Both the position numbers and the translations under genes were made by a program. From NCBI GenBank assembly GCA_048539495.1, contig JBLYPS010000001.1, positions 82,038-146,037 of the forward strand: a stretch of DNA of 64,000 nt, written 5' to 3'. The stretch comes from Dehalococcoidia bacterium. Lineage in GTDB: Bacteria > Chloroflexota > Dehalococcoidia > SZUA-161 > SpSt-899. Below are positions 1,633 through 39,182 of this stretch, one piece after another; within the stretch, counting starts at the first letter, position 1; each line of letters begins with the position of its first letter. The notes beneath the pieces were generated by a model. It saw nothing but the letters and a program-made list of their open reading frames with translations, was not told the DNA's origin and ran no database searches.

Positions 1633-2525
1633 CATACCAAAACCCATATCACTGCTACCAGCCACATCAAGAGCAAGGCCGAATCGATCGTTTCCGGCGT
1701 TAAGGCGGTGGTTGCTTCGCCCAGTTTGTAGTGGCCCACCTTCTCTAATTGTACTCCCAGGGCTCCGGCAGCGGCGCTCATCGGCCAGCCAGCATTAGGA
1801 CTCTCCACTTTGGCATGGTCACGGAGCATCGTGTGCCAGGCGCCGGCGGCGCTCTTCCCGGAAAGGAGAGCGGCGAATACCATCATCAGGCCAGTAAGTC
1901 TCGCCGGGATGAAATTAAGCACATCATCCAACCGGGCGGCGAACTTTCCCAGATACTCGTATTTACCCCGGTACCCGATCATGGAGTCGAAGGTATTGGC
2001 CACTCGATAAGCAATGGTCCCCGGAACGCCGAGGAGCAGGAAAAAGAAGAGCGGGGCAACAAAGCTATCGGAGGTATTCTCTGCTACCGATTCCACTGTC
2101 GCTGCCACCAGGAGACTGCTGCTTAGCCCCTCGGTGTTGCGGCCGACCAAAGCCCGCATCTGCACCCGTGCCTTTTGCAGATCGTTATGCTTTAGCAGCC
2201 TCTTGACCTCCAGCGCTGAGCAGCGCAGCTCCCTGATCGAGAATGTCAACTTGAGCAATACGGCAGCACCAATGATATAGGCTACACGATTAAACTCCTC
2301 AAGATAGGCTAGAATGAAATAGGCTGGGGTAGGCAGTAGCGCCAATCCCAGTAGAACCATCCCCGTGCCGTAGAGGAACTGCGTGCCTACAGCACCTCGG
2401 GGGGCGAACCTTTCCAAAAGGGCGATGAATTTGCCGGTCCATCCTACGGGATGCCAGGCGGTGGGGGGCTCTCCCAGCGCCAGATCGATGATCAGGGATA
2501 GCAGCAGGATATATATAGCATCCAC
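1608..2525 (-). CDS. cbiB: adenosylcobinamide-phosphate synthase CbiB/CobD (membrane)
   Basis: 305 aa hydrophobic protein starting MDAIYILLLSLIIDLALGEPP...WHPV, typical of the CbiB family. Confidence 0.8.
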   Translation of the reverse strand: MDAIYILLLSLIIDLALGEPPTAWHPVGWTGKFIALLERFAPRGAVGTQFLYGTGMVLLGLALLPTPAYFILAYLEEFNRVAYIIGAAVLLKLTFSIRELRCSALEVKRLLKHNDLQKARVQMRALVGRNTEGLSSSLLVAATVESVAENTSDSFVAPLFFFLLLGVPGTIAYRVANTFDSMIGYRGKYEYLGKFAARLDDVLNFIPARLTGLMMVFAALLSGKSAAGAWHTMLRDHAKVESPNAGWPMSAAAGALGVQLEKVGHYKLGEATTALTPETIDSALLLMWLVAVIWVLVCLILSFRF

Positions 2526-2563: not shown

Positions 2564-3964
2564 TTAAAAACGCCTCTCTCGGTTTGTCCATTGAGCGCAG
2601 GACTCTACGAATCGCTTTGCCAGCGAAGACTTACTGCCAAAGTGGAGATGAAAATATGAGCCCAGGATGTTGGACTCCGGCCCAAGGACAAAGCCCTCCA
2701 ACTGCTCCTCAGGCTCAAAGATTCGATAGGCTGCTCTCCCGGTTGGTCCCGATAGCTTCGACCAGTGGAAGAAATGCCCGCGCAGTCTCTCACCTCTTTG
2801 GGCAAGAATGCTGTTCTGCAGCGTTTCAGCTACGCCATAGCCCATTCTCACCCACTTTTTTTGCATCACTGCCCAGCCTGGAACAAGACCAACCATAGCA
2901 TGCTTATTGCTATCAAAGTCGATGATGCCCTGTGAGATATACATCAACCCACCACACTCGGCATAAATAGGTATGCCTGCCTCGGCTGCTTCTACAAGGG
3001 CTCGCTTGAATCCGCTATTCGCCTCAAGCTCAATGGCATACATCTCAGGAAAGCCGCCACCAACATAGACTCCTTGGGTATCAGATGGCAGGTTGGCATC
3101 ATGTAAAGGGCTGACAAATCTTAGCTCTGCTCCCCAGGCAGCCAGGAGGTCAAGGTTGTCCTGATAATAGAAGTTAAACGCCTCATCCTGTGCCACGGCA
3201 ATGCTGACTTGCACCGGCTCTGCCTTCGGAGGGAAGAGCTTGCCCTCCGCAACCTGTGGCAGTGGTTCCGTCATACCAGCCAGACGGAGAATGGTGGCTA
3301 CATCCACCGTTGACTCGACCTGCTCCCTTATCCTCTCCATGTATTCGCTGAGTTCTGCACCCTCAGCAGTGGGCACAAGTCCCAGATGTCGTTCGGGAAG
3401 AAGTATCTCAGCTTTCCTCGGCAAGTAGCCAAATACAGGAACCCCGGCCTTCTTTTCCACTGCCTCGGTCACCCAGCGCAGATGGCTGGGACTACCAACA
3501 TTATTCAGGATGACACCGGCTAGATTTAACTCTGGGTCAAGCTGGCGGTAGCCGAGGGCAATTGCGGCAGCGCTGCCTGACATTTTGGCTACGTCTATAA
3601 TCAGTATCACCGGGGCATGAAGCCACCGGGCAATTTCGGCTGTGCTGCCAGCGCTCTCCAATCCGCTTCGCCCATCGTAGAGTCCCATTACCCCCTCCAC
3701 CACCGCGATATCAGCCTCTCCAGCGGCATGGGTGAAAAGTTCAATCAAGGATTCCGGAGAAAGCATCCAACTATCAAGGTTGCGGCAGGGGAAGCCTGCC
3801 GCCAGGGAATGATATCCCGGGTCGATATAATCCGGACCACACTTGAAGGGCTGCACCCGCAAGCCGCGTTCTCTTAAGGCAGCGATGAGCCCGGCGGTGA
3901 TGGTGGTCTTGCCCACCCCACTGCTTGTCCCTGCGATTACCAGCCTAGGGATCTTCATAATCAA
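2564..3964 (-). CDS. cbiA: cobyrinic acid a,c-diamide synthase (CbiA/CobB) with C-terminal glutamine amidotransferase domain
   Basis: Motifs GTSSGVGKTT, KCGPDYIDPGY, RNLDSWML, VVEGVMGLYDG, DEAFNFYY and YAECGGLMY align with CbiA. Confidence 0.8.
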   Translation of the reverse strand: MIMKIPRLVIAGTSSGVGKTTITAGLIAALRERGLRVQPFKCGPDYIDPGYHSLAAGFPCRNLDSWMLSPESLIELFTHAAGEADIAVVEGVMGLYDGRSGLESAGSTAEIARWLHAPVILIIDVAKMSGSAAAIALGYRQLDPELNLAGVILNNVGSPSHLRWVTEAVEKKAGVPVFGYLPRKAEILLPERHLGLVPTAEGAELSEYMERIREQVESTVDVATILRLAGMTEPLPQVAEGKLFPPKAEPVQVSIAVAQDEAFNFYYQDNLDLLAAWGAELRFVSPLHDANLPSDTQGVYVGGGFPEMYAIELEANSGFKRALVEAAEAGIPIYAECGGLMYISQGIIDFDSNKHAMVGLVPGWAVMQKKWVRMGYGVAETLQNSILAQRGERLRGHFFHWSKLSGPTGRAAYRIFEPEEQLEGFVLGPESNILGSYFHLHFGSKSSLAKRFVESCAQWTNRERRF

Positions 3965-4128
3965 GCCTCACCACCCGAGTTTGTCTCGTAGCCACGGGGA
4001 GTCACCATCCATCGGCCAAAGGTGAAAGTGGTCAAGTTTCCCTTGAACCTGTCTTCCCATGCCCCCGGCGATGACTTCCTTTTGAGCCATAAATGGTATT
4101 CGTAGCGGGGGCTTGCTCCATGAAAATG

Positions 4129-7137: not shown

Positions 7138-7303
7138 AATGTGCCAAACCTAAAACCCCACCCTCCCCACGGAGGCGTTAAGGACACATCAGAGGCTGGC
7201 GTTCTGGCTTCCCCTAGTCGGGGTCACAGTGGCGGGGCCGCGCCGGATTTGCACCGTACTTGCTCTCCATTTTAGCCCTCGCTCACGCTAGGGCACCTCT
7301 GTT
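7110..7303 (-). promoter_or_regulatory. cobalamin (B12) riboswitch aptamer
   Basis: Minus-strand sequence contains ggtgcaaatccggcgcggccccgccactgtgaccccgactaggggaagccag, i.e. the GGTGCAAATCC element and the B12 box GCCACTG followed by GGGAAGCCAG. Upstream of the btuF-like gene. Confidence 0.7.
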
Positions 7304-7928
7304 GAGCTATTCAATTGTGGTCTACTGTTGCTATTATATAGTATTCTAACTGGAAAAGCAAGCGATGTCAAGGGTTCTTAATCATCCGTGAGTCCGGATA
7401 CAAAATACAAAAGCTGCACCCTGCAGGTGATGACCTGAGCGAATCTTAGAATAAAGCAGGGCAGAGATTTTTCTTGAAATGCCCCCGCTTTAAGTCTCCG
7501 GTTGCAAGCACCAATTTTTTCATCCCATGGGATACAGAGCTACCTCACTGGGCAGGTGAGTCTCAATAACCAATAACCAGACAGCTTGCCTCGCCCATAC
7601 CTCTCTTGACAAAGGCAAACGGGAGGTTTACTATAAGGTAAACATAATGCTTGTGTACCAACTATCGGAGCATAAACCATGTATGATGCTGGAAAGTATA
7701 TCTGTTTCAATCTAGGACGGGTGATGCGCCGGGCGTATGATTACTATGAAAAGCGGCTGTCATCCTTACAGAGGAGGCGTCCTTGCTGACTGGTATGCCA
7801 CTTTCCGGAAAAAACCTTGAAGAGCTGACCGAGATGAAACAGATGGACCTGCCGGGCCTGGGCAAGCGTCTGGATGCACTGGCCAGGAAAGGCCTAGTCT
7901 TCCGCACCGCCAAAGGAGGCCGGCCTCA

Positions 7929-12488: not shown

Positions 12489-12497
12489 CATGATGAG

Positions 12498-12628
12498 TGA
12501 TCCCGTAGGACGGGCATCTTGCCCGTCAAATGATTAGCAGTGATCCCGTAGGACGGGCATCTTGCCCGTCAAATGATTAGCAGTGATCCCGTAGGACGGG
12601 CATCTTGCCCGTTAATGCCCAATTAGCA
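12498..12628. repeat. three tandem 43-bp units, each carrying a GTAG-headed REP hairpin (GTAGGACGGGCATCTTGCCCGTC)
   Basis: The unit tgatcccgtaggacgggcatcttgcccgtcaaatgattagcag occurs three times; the third copy is slightly diverged. Each has an 8-bp stem with a 3-nt loop. Sits directly upstream of the RAYT gene. Confidence 0.85.
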
Positions 12629-12638
12629 GCAAAGAAAG

Positions 12639-13097
12639 ATGAGCCGACCTAAACACTTACAAACCGAAACTCGTTGCTACTTCGTCACTACAAATACAGA
12701 AGGGCGCAAAGCGTTGTTTGTAAATCACAGGGTAGCCCGGATAGTTATTGACGCCCTTCATTTCCTGCGAAAAGAAAGCAGAATAAGATTGTATGGCTTC
12801 GTGATAATGCCTGATCATTTGCATTTTATCCCCTTCCTTTCGGAGGGTGAAGAACTCCCCAAAGTAATGCATAGCCTGAAGAGTTTTACCGCTAAAGAGA
12901 TAAACAAAAACCTTCGCCGCTCGGGAAAAGTTTGGCAAGATGGGTATCACGGCCACGGAATAAGAGATGAACAAGATATGTTAATTAGGCTTAGATATAT
13001 GATTGAGAACCCCGTGCGGAAAGGGATTGTGGAGTGTCCAGAGGAATATAAGTTGAGTTCTGCTCATGAAAGCTGGGCGGTAGATTCATTATGGTAG
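12639..13097 (+). CDS. REP-associated tyrosine transposase (RAYT, IS200-like Y1 HUH family)
   Basis: 152 aa with the HUH motif MPDHLHFI and the catalytic-Tyr region WQDGYHGHGIRDE. Flanked on both sides by REP-type hairpins. Confidence 0.8.
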   Translation: MSRPKHLQTETRCYFVTTNTEGRKALFVNHRVARIVIDALHFLRKESRIRLYGFVIMPDHLHFIPFLSEGEELPKVMHSLKSFTAKEINKNLRRSGKVWQDGYHGHGIRDEQDMLIRLRYMIENPVRKGIVECPEEYKLSSAHESWAVDSLW

Positions 13098-16997: not shown

Positions 16998-17074
16998 GGT
17001 GAGTGTGGCCAAGTGGTTAAGGCGCCAGGTTGTGGCCCTGGAGATCGAGGGTTCGAATCCCTTCACTCACCCCA
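16998..17074 (+). tRNA. tRNA-His (anticodon GTG) with G-1 and encoded CCA
   Basis: gGTGAGTG...ccaggTTGTGGCcctgg...gagggTTCGAATccctt CACTCAC c CCA. The 7-bp acceptor stem is preceded by an extra 5' G that pairs with C73, which is His-specific. Confidence 0.85.
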
Positions 17075-22507: not shown

Positions 22508-22605
22508 CATAAACGGTTCACGGTTCGGGGTTGGGGCTACGTAACCACTGAAGACGGGCAAGATGCCCGTCCTGTTTGAACCTACGAAGTGGGAGGGAGG
22601 CTGGA

Positions 22606-22845: not shown

Positions 22846-23156
22846 GAGAGGATATCGCGATTTCAAGAAGAGTGGTTCTCCGTTTCCCACGTTCCCTGCT
22901 TACCGAAACTTGAGAAGAAAAGCGCTGAAGACAGTCTTGAAATGTCATGCATCTATCGAGGGATACATCAGGCGGTATCCCTCATTTTTTACTGCCCTGG
23001 AACCGAGACCTATCCGGGGAGATGCCCCCCGGATCACAAGGGAGATGTCGCGGGCTGCCGGGCGGTTAATGACAGGCAAGATGCCCGTCCTACCTCGCCT
23101 GAGGTGATTGTTGAGAATGGAGGGCGCGGTCAAGATCGCTCCGGTACAGGAGGAAT

Positions 23157-25345: not shown

Positions 25346-27091
25346 GTGGAACGGTACAATCTAAGAATAGGTATCATCGGCGGTGGGCAACTGGGTAAGA
25401 TGATGACCCAGGAAGCGAAGAAGATGGGGTTTTATGTTACCATACTGGACCCCACGCCGAACTCCCCGGCCAGTCAACTGGCTGATGAGCAGCTCGTCGG
25501 CGATTTTCATGACCGGAATAAGATAAGAGAGCTTGTCACCAGGAGCGACGTAACCACCTACGACATCGAAAACATTGACGTAGGTGCCTTAAAAGAGCTC
25601 GTCGAGGCGGGACATGTTATCCACCCTTCTCCACAGATACTGGAGATCATCCAGGACAAGTGGAAACAAAAAAAGGTACTGGAGCGCAGCGGTATCCCTA
25701 TCCCGAGGTACAAGAAGGTCGAGGGGGATGCCCTCGCTGCTGCTGTTGAGGGATTCGGGTTTCCGGTGGTGCAGAAGGCCTGCCGGGGAGGCTATGACGG
25801 GAGGGGGGTATTCGTGATTCGTACCAGAGACGATATAGGAAAGGCACTCAAAGTGGAGTCCTTCCTTGAAGAATTTGTCGAAATCGAGAAGGAGCTCGCG
25901 GTAATGGTGGCAAGGAGTACTACCGGTGAGATCAAATGCTATCCGTTAGTGGAGATGGTCTTCGATGAGGCGGCCAACATCTGCGATATGGTTGTCGCTC
26001 CCGCCCTGGTGGAGCAAAAAATTCAAGACGAGGCCAGGCGAATAGCGGTTGCCGTGGTAGAGCCACTTGGTGGAGCAGGTATCTTTGGGATAGAGATGTT
26101 CTTAAGCAAAGCGGGGAATGTCCTGGTGAACGAGATCGCCCCCCGGCCTCATAATTCGGGGCACTATACCATAGAGGCTTGCGTCACTTCTCAATTCGAA
26201 CAGCACATTCGGGCGATCATGGAACTCCCGTTGGGCTCGACGGAACTGCTCACCCCAGCGGTAATGATCAACATTCTGGGTGAGGAAGGGCATGAGGGGC
26301 CGGCAATATTCCAGGGGATTCGAGAGGCTTTGCTCATCCCTGGAGCGAGTCTGCATCTGTATGGGAAAAGGGTTACCAGACCATTCCGCAAGATGGGACA
26401 TGTAACAGTAGTGGATAAGGACGCCGAGAACGCTTTCGAGAAAGCCCAGAGGATAAAGACACTTCTGCGAGTGGTTTCCTCTGACGAGTCGAGAGTCAAG
26501 AGTCAAGAGTCGAGAGTCGGGGAGGGGCGGGGGACTCCAGACTCCAGACTCCAGACTCCAGACTCCAGACTCCAGACTCGTAAGATGGTGGCAAGGGTAG
26601 GAATCATCATGGGGAGCGAGTCCGACCTCCCGGTGATGGAAGAGGCGGGGAAACTGCTGGAGGAGTTCGGGATTGGCCACGAACTTACCATTGTCTCCGC
26701 CCACCGGACGCCGGAGAGGATGTTTCAATATGCTCGCCAAGCGGAGGGGAAGGGGATTGAAGTGATAATCGCCGGGGCCGGCGGAGCCGCTCATCTCCCC
26801 GGCATGGTGGCCTCAATAACCCCCCTTCCGGTAATCGGTGTGCCGATCGAGACAACCCCCTTGAAAGGGCTGGACTCCCTTTATTCCATCGTCCAAATGC
26901 CGGCAGGAGTCCCGGTGGCGACCGTGGGGATAAATAACGGCCACAATGCCGCAATCCTGGCGATGCAGATTCTGGGGGTGAAGTATCCGCAGATCAGGGG
27001 GAAGGTGAAGGAGTATAAGCAGAGATTGCAGGAGAAAGTCGAGGAGATGGCGCGCAGGGTTGAGCAAAGAAGGAGGCAAGAGGAAGCATGA
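25346..27091 (+). CDS. purK-purE: PurK-PurE fusion: N5-carboxyaminoimidazole ribonucleotide synthase fused to N5-CAIR mutase
   Basis: N-terminal ATP-grasp (IGIIGGGQLGKMM...) followed by PurE (VGIIMGSESDLPVMEEA...GAGGAAHLPGMVAS). The two are joined by a linker encoded by heptamer element 26486..26580. Probable GTG start. Confidence 0.85.
   Translation: MERYNLRIGIIGGGQLGKMMTQEAKKMGFYVTILDPTPNSPASQLADEQLVGDFHDRNKIRELVTRSDVTTYDIENIDVGALKELVEAGHVIHPSPQILEIIQDKWKQKKVLERSGIPIPRYKKVEGDALAAAVEGFGFPVVQKACRGGYDGRGVFVIRTRDDIGKALKVESFLEEFVEIEKELAVMVARSTTGEIKCYPLVEMVFDEAANICDMVVAPALVEQKIQDEARRIAVAVVEPLGGAGIFGIEMFLSKAGNVLVNEIAPRPHNSGHYTIEACVTSQFEQHIRAIMELPLGSTELLTPAVMINILGEEGHEGPAIFQGIREALLIPGASLHLYGKRVTRPFRKMGHVTVVDKDAENAFEKAQRIKTLLRVVSSDESRVKSQESRVGEGRGTPDSRLQTPDSRLQTRKMVARVGIIMGSESDLPVMEEAGKLLEEFGIGHELTIVSAHRTPERMFQYARQAEGKGIEVIIAGAGGAAHLPGMVASITPLPVIGVPIETTPLKGLDSLYSIVQMPAGVPVATVGINNGHNAAILAMQILGVKYPQIRGKVKEYKQRLQEKVEEMARRVEQRRRQEEA
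26486..26580. repeat. heptamer-armed palindromic element: (GAGTCRA)x5, core ggaggggcggggg, then (ACTCCAG)x6
   Basis: Read directly. The arms are reverse-complement related through GAGTC/GACTC. Translated in frame as [37 protein letters not shown]. Confidence 0.85.
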
Positions 27092-27642
27092 ACGAGGATC
27101 CGAGATCGGGGGGTAGCTTCGCGGTGAACAGGGCGATAGAGGAATTTCTGGGCAATTCCTCTGCCCCGGCTGGGATGAGGGGCGATCTGGTGCGTTTTAG
27201 CATGAAGTGCGGCGGTCGTCCTTTCTTTACCCTGACCACCGAGGAGCTGAGGGATTTTGTGATGGGAGTCAAGAAGGCCGCCGATCGCAAGAAGCGTGTC
27301 GAGGCGCTGGATGGATTTTTCAATTATGCCAAAGAGAGGGGATGGGTCATCGTGAATCCTATCACCGACCTTATCAAGAAGAAAGAACCGCGGATAAAAC
27401 CGGTATCTCCTTCCGAGAAACCTGTCTGGCTTTCCGCTGAAGGTTTTCAAAGACTTGAAGCTGAAATAGACGGACTCCTCAAAGAGAGGGCGAAAGCCAT
27501 TGCGGAGGTGAAAAGGACCAGGGAGGACGGGGACCTCCGGGAGAACGCCCCCTACCATGCTGCCCGGGAAAGGCTCGCCTGGGTAGAATCTCGGGCGACG
27601 GAAATCAGAGCCATTCTTGCCCGTGCCCGTCCCAGTGATTAG
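27088..27642 (+). CDS. hypothetical protein: integrase-SAM-like N-terminal region plus GreA/GreB N-terminal coiled-coil-like C-terminus
   Basis: REDGDLRENAPYHAARERLAWVESRATEI matches the GreA_GreB_N motif (DLSENAEY..AKE). No FKBP-like C-terminal domain is present. Confidence 0.4.
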   Translation: MNEDPRSGGSFAVNRAIEEFLGNSSAPAGMRGDLVRFSMKCGGRPFFTLTTEELRDFVMGVKKAADRKKRVEALDGFFNYAKERGWVIVNPITDLIKKKEPRIKPVSPSEKPVWLSAEGFQRLEAEIDGLLKERAKAIAEVKRTREDGDLRENAPYHAARERLAWVESRATEIRAILARARPSD

Positions 27643-27755: not shown

Positions 27756-28865
27756 ATGGCCAGAATCTTAGACGGGTATCAAACGGAGGCGATAAAGGAA
27801 GCGGCATCCCTCATTCAAAAAGGGGGGGTCGTGGCTTTCCCGACGGAGACGGTCCACGGGCTCGGGGCGGATGCCTTCAACCCCAAAGCCGTAGCCCTCA
27901 TTTTCGAAGTTAAGAAGAGACCCCGTTTTGATCCTCTCATCGTCCATATCGCTGAACTTTCCGATGTGAAGAAGGTTTGTCTTCACGCCGATGATCGAGC
28001 AGGGAAAGTGATGGAGTGGTTCTGGCCGGGGCCTTTGACCGTGGTGCTTCCGAAGACGCCGGAGGTGCCGGATATTGTGACGGCGGGACTTCCCACTGTC
28101 GCCGTGCGCTTACCCTCCCATCCGGTTGCCTTAAGCCTCATCCGCGAGGCACGGACGCCCATCGCCGCTCCCAGTGCCAATCTCTTTGGCTATCTCAGCC
28201 CAACGACAGCGGAGCATGTAAATGAGCAGCTCGGCAGCGCAATCGAGATCATCCTCGACGACCAACAGTCGGCAGTCGGCAGTCGGCAGTCCGGGGCGGG
28301 GTGGGGGACTAGCGACTATCGACTATCGACTTGGAATCGAGTGGGGGTGGAGTCCACCATTATTGACCTCTCTGAAGAGGAACCCGTCCTCCTGCGCCCC
28401 GGTGGAACGCCTCTGGAGGAAATCGAGAGGGTCATCGGGAGGGTAAAGATCCCGCCTCATGATCCCCAGCAACCCCGTTCTCCGGGGCAGCTTCCCCATC
28501 ACTATTCCCCCCGCACCCCCCTCAAGATTCTGCTTGATGAAGAATTGAGTATTGAGTATCGAGTTTTGAGTTTTGAGGAGGGGGGAGGGACTCCAGACTC
28601 CAGACTCCAGACTCCAGACTCCAGACTCGAGAGGGTTGGCCTTCTGGCATTCCAACGTCCCCGGGAGGGAGATTTTGCGGCAATTGAAGTTCTTTCCCCC
28701 TCCGGAGACCTCCGTGAGGCGGCGGCGAACCTGTTTGCGGCGCTCCACCGGCTTGATTCTGCCGGACTTGATCTTATCCTCGCCGAACCGGTTCCCGAGG
28801 GGGGGCTCGGCCGGGCGATCATGGATCGACTGCGCCGGGCAAGTGGAGTCCTGAGTCGAAGGTAA
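27756..28865 (+). CDS. tsaC: L-threonylcarbamoyladenylate synthase (TsaC/Sua5 family, with Sua5 C-terminal domain)
   Basis: VAFPTETVHGLGADAF..., PLIVH, GPLTVVL and APSANLFG motifs. It carries two in-frame heptamer elements, at 28267..28333 and 28546..28630. Confidence 0.85.
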   Translation: MARILDGYQTEAIKEAASLIQKGGVVAFPTETVHGLGADAFNPKAVALIFEVKKRPRFDPLIVHIAELSDVKKVCLHADDRAGKVMEWFWPGPLTVVLPKTPEVPDIVTAGLPTVAVRLPSHPVALSLIREARTPIAAPSANLFGYLSPTTAEHVNEQLGSAIEIILDDQQSAVGSRQSGAGWGTSDYRLSTWNRVGVESTIIDLSEEEPVLLRPGGTPLEEIERVIGRVKIPPHDPQQPRSPGQLPHHYSPRTPLKILLDEELSIEYRVLSFEEGGGTPDSRLQTPDSRLERVGLLAFQRPREGDFAAIEVLSPSGDLREAAANLFAALHRLDSAGLDLILAEPVPEGGLGRAIMDRLRRASGVLSRR

Positions 28866-34012: not shown

Positions 34013-35482
34013 ATGGGGGATCAAATGACAATAATACCAAAATGCATGAGCACCCAACATCCTGACAATGTGAATCCCCCGTTTTTTGCCGAGAACACTG
34101 TACTTGGCGGAGAGGACGAGATACAAGAAGTATACTATGTCTTTTCTCATTTAGGTTGTGATGAGCAGATGTGGGATTATGAAGGGAAGGAAGTTGATAA
34201 TTATGTAGTTAAAAAACTGTTGACAAGATACGAACCTTTTTTCAGGGATAAAAGACTAGGCAAAGATGTCTTTGTAACCTTAAGAGTGCCTAATCCTACT
34301 GAAGAAAAAGCCGAGGCAAAAATTTTATTGGAAACCCTGGAAAGCATACCCAGGTCATTTGATGCCGCTAAATTATTTTACCGAGATGATACACCTCCAA
34401 TATTCGAGGTTATCTTACCAATGACAGCCTCTCCCGAGTGTATTGATAGGATTTATAGGTATTATTGCGATTTCCTTGTAGGCAGGAGAAATAAACCACT
34501 TAAAAAAGGCGATATAACAATTGCTGAATGGGTTGGAGAATTCAAGCCTGAAAGAATTAACGTCATACCTCTCTTCGAAGACATGAAACACATGCTTGAT
34601 GCCCACAATATAACAAGAACATACTTACAGGACAAGGATTTAGAATACCAGAGAGTTTTTCTGGCACGCTCGGATCCAGCAATGAATTACGGGCTTGTTA
34701 GCACTGTTTTTGTAAATAAAATTGCCCTTCAAAGATTACACAAATTATCTGAGGATATTGGTGTTAAAATATACCCTATCATTGGTATGGGGTCAGCTCC
34801 TTTTAGAGGCAATCTCAAACCACAGACAGTAGAAAGGGTGGCAAAAGAATATCCAAGCATTCATACATTTACCATTCAATCCGCATTTAAATATGACAAC
34901 CACCCTGATGAAGTTAGAGAAGCTATAAGAAAGCTACAAAAAAGAAAAATAGAGCCACCTCAGGAAGTAGATGAGGAGAGATGCTTGGAAATAGTTAGGA
35001 AATGTTCTCAAGAATACCAAACCCAAATAGAAGGATTAGCACCAGTGATCAATGAGGTTGCCAAGTATGTTCCGCCTAGAAGGAAGAGGAAATTACATAT
35101 CGGGCTATTCGGCTATGCCCGTAGTATGAGAGGAATTACATTACCAAGGGCAATAACATTTACCGCCGCCCTTTATTCTATAGGTTTGCCACCAGAAATT
35201 CTTGGTTTGAATGCTTTGGATGAAGGTGACATTCAATTTATTAAGAAGGTTTACGTAAACTTTGAAGATGATTTAAGAGATTCCCTAAAATACGTTAACC
35301 CGGATACAGGTTTCCTACCCCAAAATCTGAAAGCAAGGGTTAGAGATTTTCCGATAGATATCGAAGTTAATGAAGAGCACAAAGAAATAACAGACTATGT
35401 TCTGAGTTCATTAAGAGAAAACAGGGGCGATTTAGGAAATTATGTTTTAAGAGCAGCTAATTTAAGAAAATTCCTTGGATGA
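34013..35482 (+). CDS. ppcA: archaeal-type phosphoenolpyruvate carboxylase (atPEPC/PpcA)
   Basis: The N-terminus ...IPKCMSTQHPDN is diagnostic of atPEPC. About 490 aa. GC is clearly lower than the flanking carA and carB. Confidence 0.8.
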   Translation: MGDQMTIIPKCMSTQHPDNVNPPFFAENTVLGGEDEIQEVYYVFSHLGCDEQMWDYEGKEVDNYVVKKLLTRYEPFFRDKRLGKDVFVTLRVPNPTEEKAEAKILLETLESIPRSFDAAKLFYRDDTPPIFEVILPMTASPECIDRIYRYYCDFLVGRRNKPLKKGDITIAEWVGEFKPERINVIPLFEDMKHMLDAHNITRTYLQDKDLEYQRVFLARSDPAMNYGLVSTVFVNKIALQRLHKLSEDIGVKIYPIIGMGSAPFRGNLKPQTVERVAKEYPSIHTFTIQSAFKYDNHPDEVREAIRKLQKRKIEPPQEVDEERCLEIVRKCSQEYQTQIEGLAPVINEVAKYVPPRRKRKLHIGLFGYARSMRGITLPRAITFTAALYSIGLPPEILGLNALDEGDIQFIKKVYVNFEDDLRDSLKYVNPDTGFLPQNLKARVRDFPIDIEVNEEHKEITDYVLSSLRENRGDLGNYVLRAANLRKFLG

Positions 35483-35619: not shown

Positions 35620-38469
35620 ATGCCAAGAAGGTCTGATATAGAAAGGATCCTGCTCATCGGGTCCGGCCCGATCATCATCGGGCAGGGCTGCGAGTTCGAT
35701 TACTCCGGGAGCCAGGCTTGCAAGGCGCTGCGGGAGGAGGGCTATGAAGTCATTCTGGTCAATTCGAACCCGGCAACGATCATGACCGACCCGGAGATGG
35801 CAGTGGCGACTTACATCGAACCATTGACCCCAGAGGTGATCGAAAAAATAATCGAGAAAGAAAGACCGGACGCTCTCCTCCCCACCCTCGGCGGTCAAGT
35901 TGGACTGAACATCGCCGCCGAGCTCTCCGAACGGGGAGTCCTCCAGAAATATAACGTGGAGCTTATCGGGGCCAAGTTCGAGGCAATCAGAAAGGCCGAA
36001 GATAGGATTCTCTTCAAGGAGGCAATGGAAAGGATAGGCCTGCGGACTCCGCGGAGCAAAGAGGCTTATTCGGCGGAAGAGGCGACAAAAATTGCCGAGG
36101 AGATCGGCTACCCCGTGGTTATCAGGCCGGCCTACACCCTGGGGGGAACCGGGGGCGGAATAGCCTTCAACCGGGAGGAGCTGGAGGTGATATCCGCCAG
36201 GGGCATAGAGTTCAGCCGCATCGGGCAGGTTCTTATTGAGGAGTCGGTCATCGGTTGGAAGGAATATGAGCTTGAGGTGATGAGGGACCTGGCCGACAAT
36301 GTGGTTATCATCTGCTCGATAGAGAACCTGGACCCCATGGGGGTTCACACCGGCGACAGCATCACCTGCGCTCCAGCCCAGACTTTGACCGACAGGGAAT
36401 ATCAGGAGATGCGCGATGCTTCCATAAAGGTCATGCGAGAAATTGGTGTTGAAACCGGGGGCTCGAATATTCAGTTTGCCGTAAATCCCCAAAACGGAGA
36501 AATGGTAGTCATCGAAATGAATCCCCGGGTGAGCCGAAGCTCCGCCCTAGCATCAAAGGCCACCGGATTCCCCATTGCTAAGATCGCCGCCAAACTCGCC
36601 GTCGGGCTCACCCTGGATGAGATACCGAATGATATAACGAAGGAAACCCCCGCCTCTTTCGAGCCAACCATAGATTATGTAGTGGTCAAGATGCCCCGAT
36701 GGCCCTTCGATAAGTTCCCCGAGGCGGATAAGACGCTCACCACGCAGATGAAATCGATCGGCGAGGCGATGGCACTGGGGAGGACATTTGAGGAAGCCTT
36801 GCAGAAGGCGGTGAGGTCGTTGGAGATCGGGAAGTACGGATTAACGAGTCGAGGGTCAAGAGTCGAGAGTCCAGAATCACGGGGAGAGGGACTCCAGTTG
36901 ACGGGCAAGATGCCCGTCCTACCAGACTCCAGACTCCAGACTCCAGATAGTCTTGGGGAGGAATTGCTCAACAAGCTGAGATTCCCGGTCGCCGAAAGAA
37001 TCTTCCTCGTCGCAGAGGCTTTCAAAAGGGGAATTCGTGTGGAAGAGGTGGCCGAACTCACCAGGATCGACCCCTGGTTTCTGGAGAAGGTCAAGAACAT
37101 CACGAGTCTAGAGTCTAGAGTCGAGAGACTCCAGTTGACGGGCAAGATGCCCGTCCTACCAGACTCCAGACTCCAGACTTCAAATCTCATCCCCCGGGAG
37201 CTAATGCTCGAGGCGAAGAGGATGGGTTTCTCCGATAGACAACTCGCTGATCTCTTGAAGACCGATGAGCTGGAGCTTCGGGGCAAAAGAAAGGAAATGG
37301 GGATAGTTCCAACATATAAGCTGGTGGATACCTGCGCCGCCGAGTTCGAGGCCAAGACTCCTTATTACTACTCTTGTTATGAAGATGAGGATGAAGTCGA
37401 GGTAACGCCAAGAAAGAAAATGCTCATAATCGGCGGGGGGCCGAACAGGATAGGGCAGGGTATTGAGTTTGACTATTGCTGCGTTCAGGCGGTTTTTGCC
37501 CTCAAGGAAGAGGGGTATGAAACCATAATGGTAAATTGCAATCCAGAGACGGTGAGCACAGACTACGACACCGCGGATAGACTATACTTTGAGCCTTTGA
37601 CCTTCGAGGATGTCTTAAACATCATCGAAAAAGAAAAGCCCGATGGAGTGATTGTTCAGTTCGGCGGTCAGACGCCTTTGAATCTGGCTATCCCTCTGGA
37701 GAAAGCGGGGGCGAGAATAATAGGAACCTCCACCAATTCCATTGATATGGCCGAAGATAGAAAAAGATTCAGCGCGCTCTTGCTAAGATTGGGCATTCCT
37801 CAGGCTGAGAATGGGACCGCTCTCTCCCTTGAGGAGGCGCTGAAGATAGCAGCAAGGATTGGTTACCCTGTTCTGGTCAGGCCTTCCTATGTGCTGGGTG
37901 GGAGGGGAATGGAGATAGTTTACGACGAGGAAACTCTGGTGAGGTACATGCGGGCAGCAATAGAAATATCTCCGGGAAAGCCGGTCCTGGTAGACAAGTT
38001 CTTGGAAGAGGCCACCGAGGTTGAGGTGGATGCCATCTTCGATGGGGAGGATCTCATGATCGGAGGGATAATGGAGCACATCGAGGAAGCGGGGATCCAT
38101 TCCGGTGACAGCGCCTGTGCTTTGCCCCCCCAGAACCTGGCCACTGAGACCCTAAGGGTGATAAGGGATTATACCGACAAGATCGCCCGGGAGCTGGATG
38201 TGAGAGGGTTGATGAACATCCAGTTTGCGGTGAAGGACGGGAGGGTGTATGTCCTGGAGGTGAATCCAAGAGCGTCCCGGACTGTGCCCTATATTAGCAA
38301 GGCGAGCGGCGTTCCCCTGGCGAAGATAGCCGCTAAAGTGTTGCTGGGCAAAACCTTAAAGGAACTGGGGGTGATGCGAGTCGAGAGTCGTCGAGAGTCG
38401 AGAGTCGGGGAGGGGTGGGGGACTCCAGAGCGAAGCGTCTCCAGACTCCAGACTCAAAACTTCCTGTAG
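35620..38469 (+). CDS. carB: carbamoyl-phosphate synthase large subunit, N-terminal about 90% (frame ends inside a heptamer element)
   Basis: Both ATP-grasp halves (two GSGPI(V)IGQG.EFDYSG motifs) and the oligomerisation domain, with in-frame elements at 36846..36946 and 37103..37183. The frame terminates at 38469 inside element 38377..38454. Confidence 0.85.
36846..36946. repeat. heptamer-armed element with REP core (TTGACGGGCAAGATGCCCGTCCTAC at 36898..36923) inside carB
   Basis: (GAGTCGAG-type 7-mers), the REP hairpin with its CTAC tail, then (AGACTCC)x3. In frame: [36 protein letters not shown]. Confidence 0.85.
37103..37183. repeat. second heptamer-armed element with REP core (37135..37160) inside carB
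   Basis: gagtctagagtctagagtcgag, then the REP, then agactccagactccagact. In frame: [26 protein letters not shown]. Confidence 0.85.
38377..38454. repeat. degenerate heptamer-armed element at the carB frameshift point
   Basis: gagtcgagagtcgtcgagagtcgagagtc, core ggggaggggtggggg, then gactccagagcgaagcgtctccagactccagactc. The arm units are irregular. The two carB ORFs overlap here in different frames. Confidence 0.8.
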
Positions 38470-39182
38470 CGGTAAAGGAGGCCGTTTTCCCGTTCTCCAA
38501 GTTCCCCGAAGTGGATCCGATCCTCGGTCCGGAGATGAAATCGACCGGCGAGGTGATGGGAATCGATGCCGACTTCGGTGTAGCTTTCTACAAGGCTCAG
38601 CTCGGTGCCGGAATGAATCTACCTGCTGAAGGCACGGTGCTCATCACGATCGCCGATAAGGATAAAGCGCGAGTAGTTCCGGTCGCCAGAAAATTCCAGG
38701 AGCTAGGCTTCGAGATCCTGGCCACCTCGGGAACTCAGGCTTGTCTCTCGGACCACGGAATCGAAAGCAAGAAGGTCTTCAAGATTCACGAGGGGAGGCC
38801 GCACATCGTGGATTACGTGAAGAACAAAATGGTGGACATAATCATAAACACCCCGCTGGGCAAAAAGGCAAGATACGACGATAGTTATATCAGAAAATCA
38901 GCGGTGCGGTACAACGTTCCCTATTTCACCACCGTCTCCGGGGCGGGGGCGGCGGTGATGGGGATAGAGGCGATAAAGAACCAAAAGGTGTTTTTCGAGC
39001 CTATACAAACATATCATGCCAAAACGAGTCGAGAGTCTAGAGTCGAGAGTCGGGGAGGGGTGGGGGACTCCAGACTCCAGACTCGAAAGGGGGAGGAACC
39101 TAATGCGCAGCGATACGTTGAAAAAAGGTCTGCAACGGGCACCGCATCGGTCACTACTCAAGGCTTGTGGGGTGATGGATGA
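38415..39182 (+). CDS. carB: carbamoyl-phosphate synthase large subunit, C-terminal MGS-like domain fragment (separate frame)
   Basis: After the element: [43 protein letters not shown]...MGS domain. The likely biological end is near 39030 (EPIQTYHAK). The open frame runs through element 39026..39086 into ilvD. Confidence 0.7.

Follow-up and report, generated by a model that had tools for sequence, protein, structure and literature searches.

A short hairpin of the repetitive extragenic palindrome (REP) type lies twice inside carB in a 64,000-nucleotide (nt) stretch of the genome of a Dehalococcoidia bacterium (NCBI GenBank assembly GCA_048539495.1, contig JBLYPS010000001.1, positions 82,038 to 146,037; hereafter the window). 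Each time it is nested at the same place in one arm of a larger, apparently older insertion that is built of tandem heptamers around a G-rich core, and the arrangement recurs in two other genes and in a second heptamer family. We propose that the REP reached these arms by targeted single-strand integration of the type carried out by REP-associated tyrosine transposases (RAYTs), helped by conversion between the elements, and give this reading a probability of about 0.5. A first-pass annotation of the window, made from the letters and a list of open reading frames (ORFs), had connected the heptamer elements with a REP/RAYT system and taken the REP for their core; the connection is borne out by what follows, and the role of core is not.

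The 25-mer TTGACGGGCAAGATGCCCGTCCTAC is present exactly at 36898–36922 and 37135–37159 of the plus strand, both within carB, as had been annotated; the GTAG-headed strand is the minus strand, antisense to the gene, and this part of the description needed correction. Its reverse complement is exact at 12505–12529 and 12548–12572 and has one mismatch at 12591–12615. Two further copies, described in the first-pass annotation simply as intergenic, do fall between credible ORFs and are both diverged: at 22551–22573 (minus strand) there is the REP stem-loop alone, with the head ACAG, in the right arm of a different heptamer family, and at 23069–23093 (minus strand) there is a solitary copy of the 25-mer with two mismatches, one of them in the stem, outside any heptamer context. 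This makes 7 copies in 64 kb, compared with 0 expected from 100 dinucleotide shuffles. Read on its own strand, the REP is GTAG-GACGGGCA-TCT-TGCCCGTC-AA, in which the GTAG head adjoins a perfect 16-nt palindrome; the stem (GACGGGCA/TGCCCGTC) is a perfect 8 bp, the loop TCT is 3 nt long and the hairpin is present in every predicted fold. The 23-nt form GTAGGACGGGCATCTTGCCCGTC is read on the minus strand of both carB copies and on the plus strand of the copies near 12.5 kb. Four features of a GTAG-type REP are found here (GTAG at the 5′ foot, a stem-loop palindrome, genomic repetition and association with a RAYT); the location is not extragenic throughout, in that the copies in carB and in two genes described below, panC and glmS, lie in frame within ORFs.

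The gene beside the exact copies (12639..13097, plus strand) was correctly recognized in the first-pass annotation as a RAYT: it scores 131.6 bits against NCBIfam NF047646, for which the cut-off is 80, and matches Pfam Y1_Tnp (PF01797) with E = 1e-10, and its translation keeps both the HUH motif (DHLHF) and the tyrosine motif (RYMIENP) intact. Between the alaS stop and the RAYT start is an array of three tandem 43-nt units (12496..12615, GTAG strand on plus), each with one REP, so that the three REPs are 24–140 nt upstream of the transposase gene. The units are direct repeats at 43-nt spacing and occur on one side of the RAYT only; a sister strain that is 99.9% identical has four of them (L116, 5379–5538). 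The spacers of the array (ATGATTAGCAGTGATCC) resemble the AGTGATT heptamer family found at 27634 and 60571. Judged by these sequence features, the 25-mer is the true GTAG-type REP of a REPtron at 12.5–13.1 kb, comprising an intact RAYT and a tandem array, and we count the identities of both REP and RAYT as established on this footing.

Many elements in the window share the design (heptamer)n, G-rich core, (complementary heptamer)n, and such elements account for about 1% of the DNA sampled from the lineage. The commonest family follows the pattern CGAGTC-(GAGTCNA)n-GGGGAGGGG(N)GGGGG-(GACTCCA)n-GACTCG and is found in carA (33331), four times in carB (36844, 37102, 38378 and 39024) and at 26486, 40757 and 61457, which are ORFs or intergenic positions. 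In carB (35620..39182, plus strand) the REPs belong to the first two of these elements. The element at site 1 (36844..36947, plus strand) consists of about five GAGTCNA heptamers, the core GGGGAGAGGG, one GACTCCAG, the REP and about 3.5 CAGACTC heptamers. Its core is intact at 36873–36882; the first GACTCCAG of the right arm comes next and the REP follows it, in the order ...GGGGAGAGG-GACTCCAG/REP/CAGACTCCAGACTCCAGACTCCAGA; with its flanking CAG/CTG the REP amounts to a 28-nt insert. At site 2 (37102..37179, plus strand) there is no G-rich core and the left arm runs directly into GACTCCAG/REP/CAGACTCC..., with the same flanks as at site 1 (GACTCCAG before the REP and CAGACTCCAGACTCCAGACT after it). 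The idea that the REP forms the core of the elements was therefore rejected.

A metagenome scan with the right junction GATGCCCGTCCTACCAGACTCCAG as the query detected the nested REP in two further genes, panC (L123 and L124) and glmS (L122). The left junction of these copies, which was not set by the query, is again core-GACTCCAG/REP, and the REP-bearing panC protein is identical on 6 contigs from 5 assemblies, including a sister strain (L128). All 4 nested copies in GAGTC-type elements thus have common junctions, core-GACTCCAG/REP/CAGACTCCAGACTCCAG (the G-rich core being absent at carB site 2); the REP sits one heptamer from the G-rich core in constant orientation, and its GTAG head is always on the strand where the core is C-rich. 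Excision of 28 nt (the REP plus CAG) leaves a perfect heptamer register, with boundaries that are ambiguous over a 3-nt repeat. On the REP strand the nested copies read GAGTCT^G-GTAG...GTCAA-CT^GGAGTC-(C-rich core), with CT flanking both sides, and in single-strand folding the REP hairpin forms a side branch of a long arm–arm stem (z = −3.3 to −6.5).

The same geometry is found in a second heptamer family. The copy at 22551 stands in the context (ACGGTTC)2-GGGGTTGGGG-CTACGTAACCACTGAA/REP stem-loop/CTGT-TTGAACC, with GTAACC..TTGAACC beyond GGGGTTGGGG, and a paralogous element at 1549 (GGTTGGGGCTGCGTAACCGTTGAACC...) has no REP. Removal of 28 nt restores the heptamer CTGAACC, and the GTAG-type strand again carries the C-rich form of the core, 8–16 nt away. 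Among the six dispersed REP sites (carB sites 1 and 2, panC, glmS, 22551 and 23069), five are within heptamer-armed elements. The association between REPs and heptamer elements is thus real and non-random, and restriction to a single gene, which would have pointed to a local duplication, is not what we observe.

The order of arrival can be read from relatives of the window. Two sister assemblies, GCA_018725405.1 (L116 and L128) and GCA_018725425.1 (L118 and L119), are 99.5–99.9% identical to it; more distant carB loci come from L120 (88% protein identity) and L121 (86%). At carB site 1, distant relatives (P0013 and P0014) have no element, L121 has the REP-free element ACGAGTCGAGAGTCAAGGGGAGGGGGACTCCAGACTGAG, L120 has a REP-free element with a different heptamer element nested in its core, and the window and L119 have the element together with the REP. 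In panC, a relative with 85% identity (P0122; L125 and L126) has a REP-free element at the same site, which is empty in more distant relatives. Both sites therefore present the full series from empty, through element, to element with REP. Because orthologous elements in relatives with 85–88% identity are free of the REP, the elements predate it and must themselves spread by other means; on this sequence comparison the REP is a secondary, nested arrival in carB and the elements are older. The host elements are palindromic repeats within open ORFs that are absent from orthologues (carB sites 1–4 and panC, compared with relatives). The DNA sampled from the lineage contains about 13 distinct elements of the GAGTC type, of which about 4 carry the REP and about 9 have neither a REP nor a GTAG hairpin.

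At carB site 2, distant and closer relatives alike have the native sequence IVLLETEIERYDLNLIP, and the window and L119 have an element with the REP. Here 36 nt of native sequence became 81 nt, a net gain of 45 nt or 15 codons; the gain at site 1 relative to L121 is 75 nt, also a multiple of three. The left arm at site 2 (37102–37128, compared with L121 1459–1545) is 27 nt long, which is the length of the native sequence replaced, and TCGAGAGA is present in both; it takes the place of LLETEIERYDL in relatives. This pattern suggests that a similar native stretch was converted, rather than that an arm was simply inserted.

Both carB REPs are codon-aligned and translated in the ORF at 35620–38469, as the first-pass annotation had stated. 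In panC the REP uses the reading frame that it has in carB, and in glmS it uses another. The main arm heptamers are free of stops in 6 of 6 frames and the REP is open in 4 of 6; because 7 nt shifts the frame by one, three heptamer repeats give the same 7-residue peptide in every frame. Since two different frames are used across the host genes, the REP peptide is unlikely to be selected, and we regard translation of the REP as a tolerated by-product, not a function. Site 1 falls between the Pfam domains CPSase_L_D2 (ATP-grasp) and CPSase_L_D3 (oligomerization), and site 2 falls inside the oligomerization-domain match, which is 15 residues longer than the model; compared with Escherichia coli CarB (1BXR), site 1 is between residues 414 and 415 and site 2 corresponds to a 15-residue gap near residue 480. 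In an AlphaFold model of CarB, which is of low quality (mean pLDDT of 60), both inserts are low-confidence coil between helices, weakly suggesting that they sit in interhelical loops at or near a domain boundary. A HMMER search with the 34-amino-acid peptide of carB site 1 against 1.84 billion cluster representatives gave one irrelevant match, a result limited by the fact that 50%-identity representatives rarely carry the insert. A protein search with the four open-frame REP peptides, concatenated, gave 12 candidates that shared words, none of which scored, and no further host genes.

How might a hairpin of this kind come to occupy one position in the arms of another repeat? We infer RAYT catalysis at a CT target in a single-stranded hairpin, with loss of reading frame corrected by slippage. 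A host element, when single-stranded, would fold into a hairpin in which the heptamer nearest the loop is most often unpaired and offers CT (CTGGAGT on the REP strand). A Y1/HUH transposase could then place a single REP there in the manner of the IS200/IS605 family, beside a short motif selected by a guide: the 28-nt unit G-GTAG...AA-CT would be excised and inserted after the CT of a (CTGGAGT)n arm, and 5′-GGAGTCTGGTAGGACGGGCATCTTGCCCGTCAACTGGAGTC-3′ is a candidate single-stranded substrate for CT^ cleavage. The fixed distance to the core would follow from exposure of the loop-proximal heptamer as a single strand by the hairpin. Since an insert of 28 nt and a single heptamer each move the reading frame by +1, slippage of the arm could restore it, and insertions that slipped to a multiple of three would be those that survive in essential genes. 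Once one arm holds a REP, gene conversion between near-identical arms probably spreads it, and copying between elements probably contributes to the present distribution. That REPs use the elements as a landing site, one of the possibilities raised in the first-pass annotation, is supported by these data, with the landing place fixed within the right arm and not at the core.

Our confidence in targeted integration is moderate, because several observations weigh against it or fit it poorly. The four GAGTC-type copies have flanks that are identical for 8 nt to one side of the REP and for 17 nt or more to the other, and carB site 1 and panC share an identical 71-nt block that includes the rare core variant GGGGAGAGGG; copying is a simpler account of this than integration on four separate occasions. 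The array REPs have no flanking CT, and the copy at 22551 is flanked by TTCA instead. Site 2 of carB passes from empty to element with REP, the REP-free intermediate being absent among the 85–88% relatives sampled. No presence or absence polymorphism of a nested REP was seen among strains that are more than 99% identical; the indels between sister strains in about 22 kb are only the 43-nt array unit (3 compared with 4), a 6-nt indel and a 17-nt duplication in a heptamer arm. The scan that found panC and glmS was queried with the right junction and would miss REPs at other arm positions. The GC skew of +0.08 would, if the plus strand is leading, place the nested GTAG strands on the leading-strand template; this is a weak objection, as the direction of replication is not established. 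Insertion of IS608 has the opposite preference, for the lagging-strand template. Even the features that speak for insertion, namely constant orientation and position in 4 of 4 copies and a like geometry in a second family, come with boundaries that are ambiguous over 3–4 nt, and copying could give the same pattern.

Copying alone is accordingly the alternative that we take most seriously, while considering it unlikely to be the whole account. It supposes that the REP entered an element once and that the block consisting of the first heptamer, the REP and the right arm then spread to other elements through whatever process propagates or homogenizes them, for example ectopic gene conversion between arms or transposition of the composite, with no later action of the RAYT. 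The junctions and about three outer heptamers are identical in all four copies; the 71-nt block with GGGGAGAGGG in carB site 1 and panC differs from the ancestral element in L121, which has a different core and shorter arms; and carB site 2 gained its element and REP together, all of which this explanation accommodates well. It is less at ease with the three different left contexts that precede GACTCCAG/REP (GGGGAGAGG, GGGGGGAGGGG and GAGTCGAGA) and with the copy at 22551, where a like geometry and a 28-nt footprint occur in an unrelated heptamer family to which arm homology cannot carry a REP. It also still requires one targeted first insertion. The nesting geometry and the recurrence of nested REPs in other genes and in another heptamer family are themselves established, and the recurrence speaks for targeted integration.

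The nested REP might instead be retained for a function in carB, panC or glmS, either as an mRNA hairpin that tunes translation or decay or as a useful peptide. The nested copies match the master REP at 100% identity, all close strains and five assemblies keep them, and the composite folds well (z = −4 to −6.5); against this, the REP is translated in two frames, the host proteins are unrelated, relatives function without it and the inserted segments are modelled as low-confidence loops, and we consider such exaptation improbable. The proposal in the first-pass annotation that the elements are themselves RAYT-mobilized REPINs with heptamer arms, the REP being their functional core, fares worse still. 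REPs and elements co-occur far more often than by chance next to an intact RAYT; yet most GAGTC-type elements lack any such hairpin, each bearer has a single REP and not an inverted doublet, the G-rich core is kept beside the REP, orthologous elements predate it and many heptamer families with unrelated arms exist, which leaves this proposal very improbable. A local duplication within carB or an assembly artefact, suggested by the spacing of the two carB copies (237 nt apart, with 53 identical bases in common), has a negligible likelihood given the identical structure in the independent assembly of L119 and the same junctions in panC and glmS on other contigs of five assemblies. Chance, assembly artefact and carB-confined duplication were rejected on these grounds and on the zero expectation from shuffled sequences.

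In carB, a 17-nt duplication (GAGTCGAGAGTCGTCGA, 38378–38394) in the left heptamer arm of the element at 38378–38455 shifts the frame and splits the gene at 38378–38469 into ORFs at 35620–38469 and 38415–39182; the sister strain L119 is without it and its carB reads through three heptamer elements. The duplication may have arisen recently in the genome or reflect a mistake in assembly. A protein search matched the carB product to an identical protein (P0001) annotated from a Dehalococcoidia metagenome-assembled genome (MAG); an exact look-up in one index gave no entry for the window's carB. The element at 39024–39087 extends over both the end of carB and the region annotated as the start of ilvD, making the carB ORF about 45 codons longer than in relatives, where carB ends ...HARGGKCAVIH. 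Between carA and carB is an ORF resembling archaeal-type PEP carboxylase (34013–35482). Across the window, the families that lie inside ORFs (GAGTCGA, GACTCCA, CAGTCGG and GGAGTCG) are free of stops in six frames, with ORF-located elements at 26486, 28266, 28544, 33331, 39026 and 61441, and the stop-containing families AGTGATT, TTGAACC and GTAGCGT sit between genes (1549, 27634, 60571 and 63588).

The REP is not the only guest in these arms. Right (GACTCCA)n arms also hold a second small insert, AGCGAAGCGTCTCC(AG), at 38425–38444, twice at carB site 1 of L120 and in panC of L123, which suggests, on sequence, that the arms host more than one kind of mini-insert. Heptamer elements also nest within each other, since the core of the L120 element at carB site 1 (~3960–4110) holds a CAGTCGG/GACTATC-type element of the family found at 28266–28331 in the window. 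In glmS (L122 ~2180–2210, minus strand of the locus), a 28-nt perfect GTAG...CTAC palindrome, GTAGGGGTCGGATTAATCCGACCCCTAC, adjoins a lone left arm; between it and the G-core, right arm and REP are about 75 nt of coding sequence native to the gene. The window contains no copy of this palindrome.

The REP itself extends beyond the lineage. A scan of 596 Gb of genome sequence with a 17-mer of the REP, which also drew chance matches and other phyla, recovered the exact 23-nt GTAGGACGGGCATCTTGCCCGTC at approximately 20 or more loci in MAGs of at least 8 phyla, among the matches listed (L004, L006, L009, L016, L019, L020, L026, L043, L044, L051, L057, L060, L065, L070, L080, L081, L084, L087, L095 and L105). 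The hosts include Brocadiales, Verrucomicrobiota, Desulfomonile, Chloroflexota, Balneolaceae, Victivallales and Phycisphaerales, and there GTAGGACGGGCATCTTGCCCGTC is usually paired, in inverted orientation, with a GTAG hairpin of another sequence; no RAYT homologue was found within the stored 8 kb around these loci. Rfam gave no match at the REP/carB site; its only matches in the window are a cobalamin riboswitch (7177–7315, minus strand) and a tRNA (16999–17071, plus strand).

A stronger version of our proposal would make the heptamer G-core elements dedicated landing pads for a live RAYT/REP system, with a single 28-nt unit at the loop-proximal CT and 7-nt slippage rescuing the frame, and hence a three-layer stack of selfish DNA in essential genes. 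We find this version doubtful. If it is true, it would provide natural before-and-after evidence for REP dissemination and a defined target for reconstituting RAYT integration. To our knowledge, integration by a RAYT into a natural target has yet to be reconstituted. The three site states, the fixed geometry by the loop, the CT boundaries and an apparently intact RAYT provide tangible substrates for assaying integration in vitro. Small repeats can evidently persist in several layers within essential genes (carB, panC and glmS), where the arm heptamers are stop-free and slippage may correct the frame. Were copying the whole story, the case would be a routine entry in the known list of REPs that lie inside genes or are nested in other repeats.

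Tandem heptamer repeats of the STRR type in cyanobacteria reportedly harbour hairpin elements of 21–27 nt, mobile DNA being nested there in layers too (Elhai and colleagues are said to have described them in 2008); phylum and sequences differ, and the account serves as a lead only. Neither a RAYT link nor in-frame residence in essential genes is known to be part of that account. Searching the literature for the heptamer and REP strings themselves, and for repeats in Dehalococcoidia, gave no match.

Compared with GTAG-type REPtrons (Ton-Hoang 2012; Corneloup 2021, PMC8266576), the REP resembles the group-3 REP of Stenotrophomonas maltophilia in its GTAG and 16-nt palindrome split by a 3-nt loop, copies adjoin a single RAYT with HUH and tyrosine motifs, and CT flanks the nested copies. 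TnpA(REP) acts on single-stranded REPs, needs GTAG, for which a role as a guide has been proposed as in IS608, and cleaves at CT 5′ or 3′ of the hairpin; how REPs spread is described as poorly understood (PMC8266576). Unlike those systems, the array here is in direct tandem on one side only, the dispersed copies are mostly inside another repeat family and genes, and activity of the RAYT is putative. REPINs are inverted REP doublets (Bertels & Rainey 2011, PMC3116915); the present copies are likewise non-autonomous REP-derived DNA with a single-copy RAYT, but they are singlets, their array is direct and no inverted doublet occurs. With IS200/IS605 elements such as IS608 there is in common a Y1 HUH enzyme, a hairpin element and apparently orientation-specific insertion beside a short motif without a long target duplication, in contrast to which the 28-nt unit has no transposase gene, shows an apparent 3–4-nt flanking repeat (CAG or TGAA) and seems to choose its target by distance from a hairpin loop. 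Rickettsia palindromic elements (RPEs), as cited in PMC3733652, are also palindromic in-frame repeats in functional genes; they share no sequence relationship or heptamer periodicity with our elements and are not known to occur with a RAYT.

The closest precedent is the survey of Di Nocera, De Gregorio & Rocco 2013 (PMC3733652), which described GTAG REPs in Chloroflexi, whole REPs translated within ORFs, sometimes twice per gene, and REP families regularly inside other palindromes (A. variabilis GTAG-15, T. roseum GTAG-23 and H. neapolitanus CGTC-1). Intragenic REPs and REPs in other palindromes are thus already known. The present case differs in its host palindrome, an in-frame insertion in essential genes with tandem-heptamer arms around a G-rich core, and in the fixed place of the REP, which is in an arm and not at the palindrome centre, with a 28-nt (4-heptamer) footprint. 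What is new is a tandem-heptamer-armed G-core host that lies in frame in essential Dehalococcoidia genes, a fixed position of the REP in its arm, a footprint equal to four heptamers, and empty, element-only and element-plus-REP states at the same sites.

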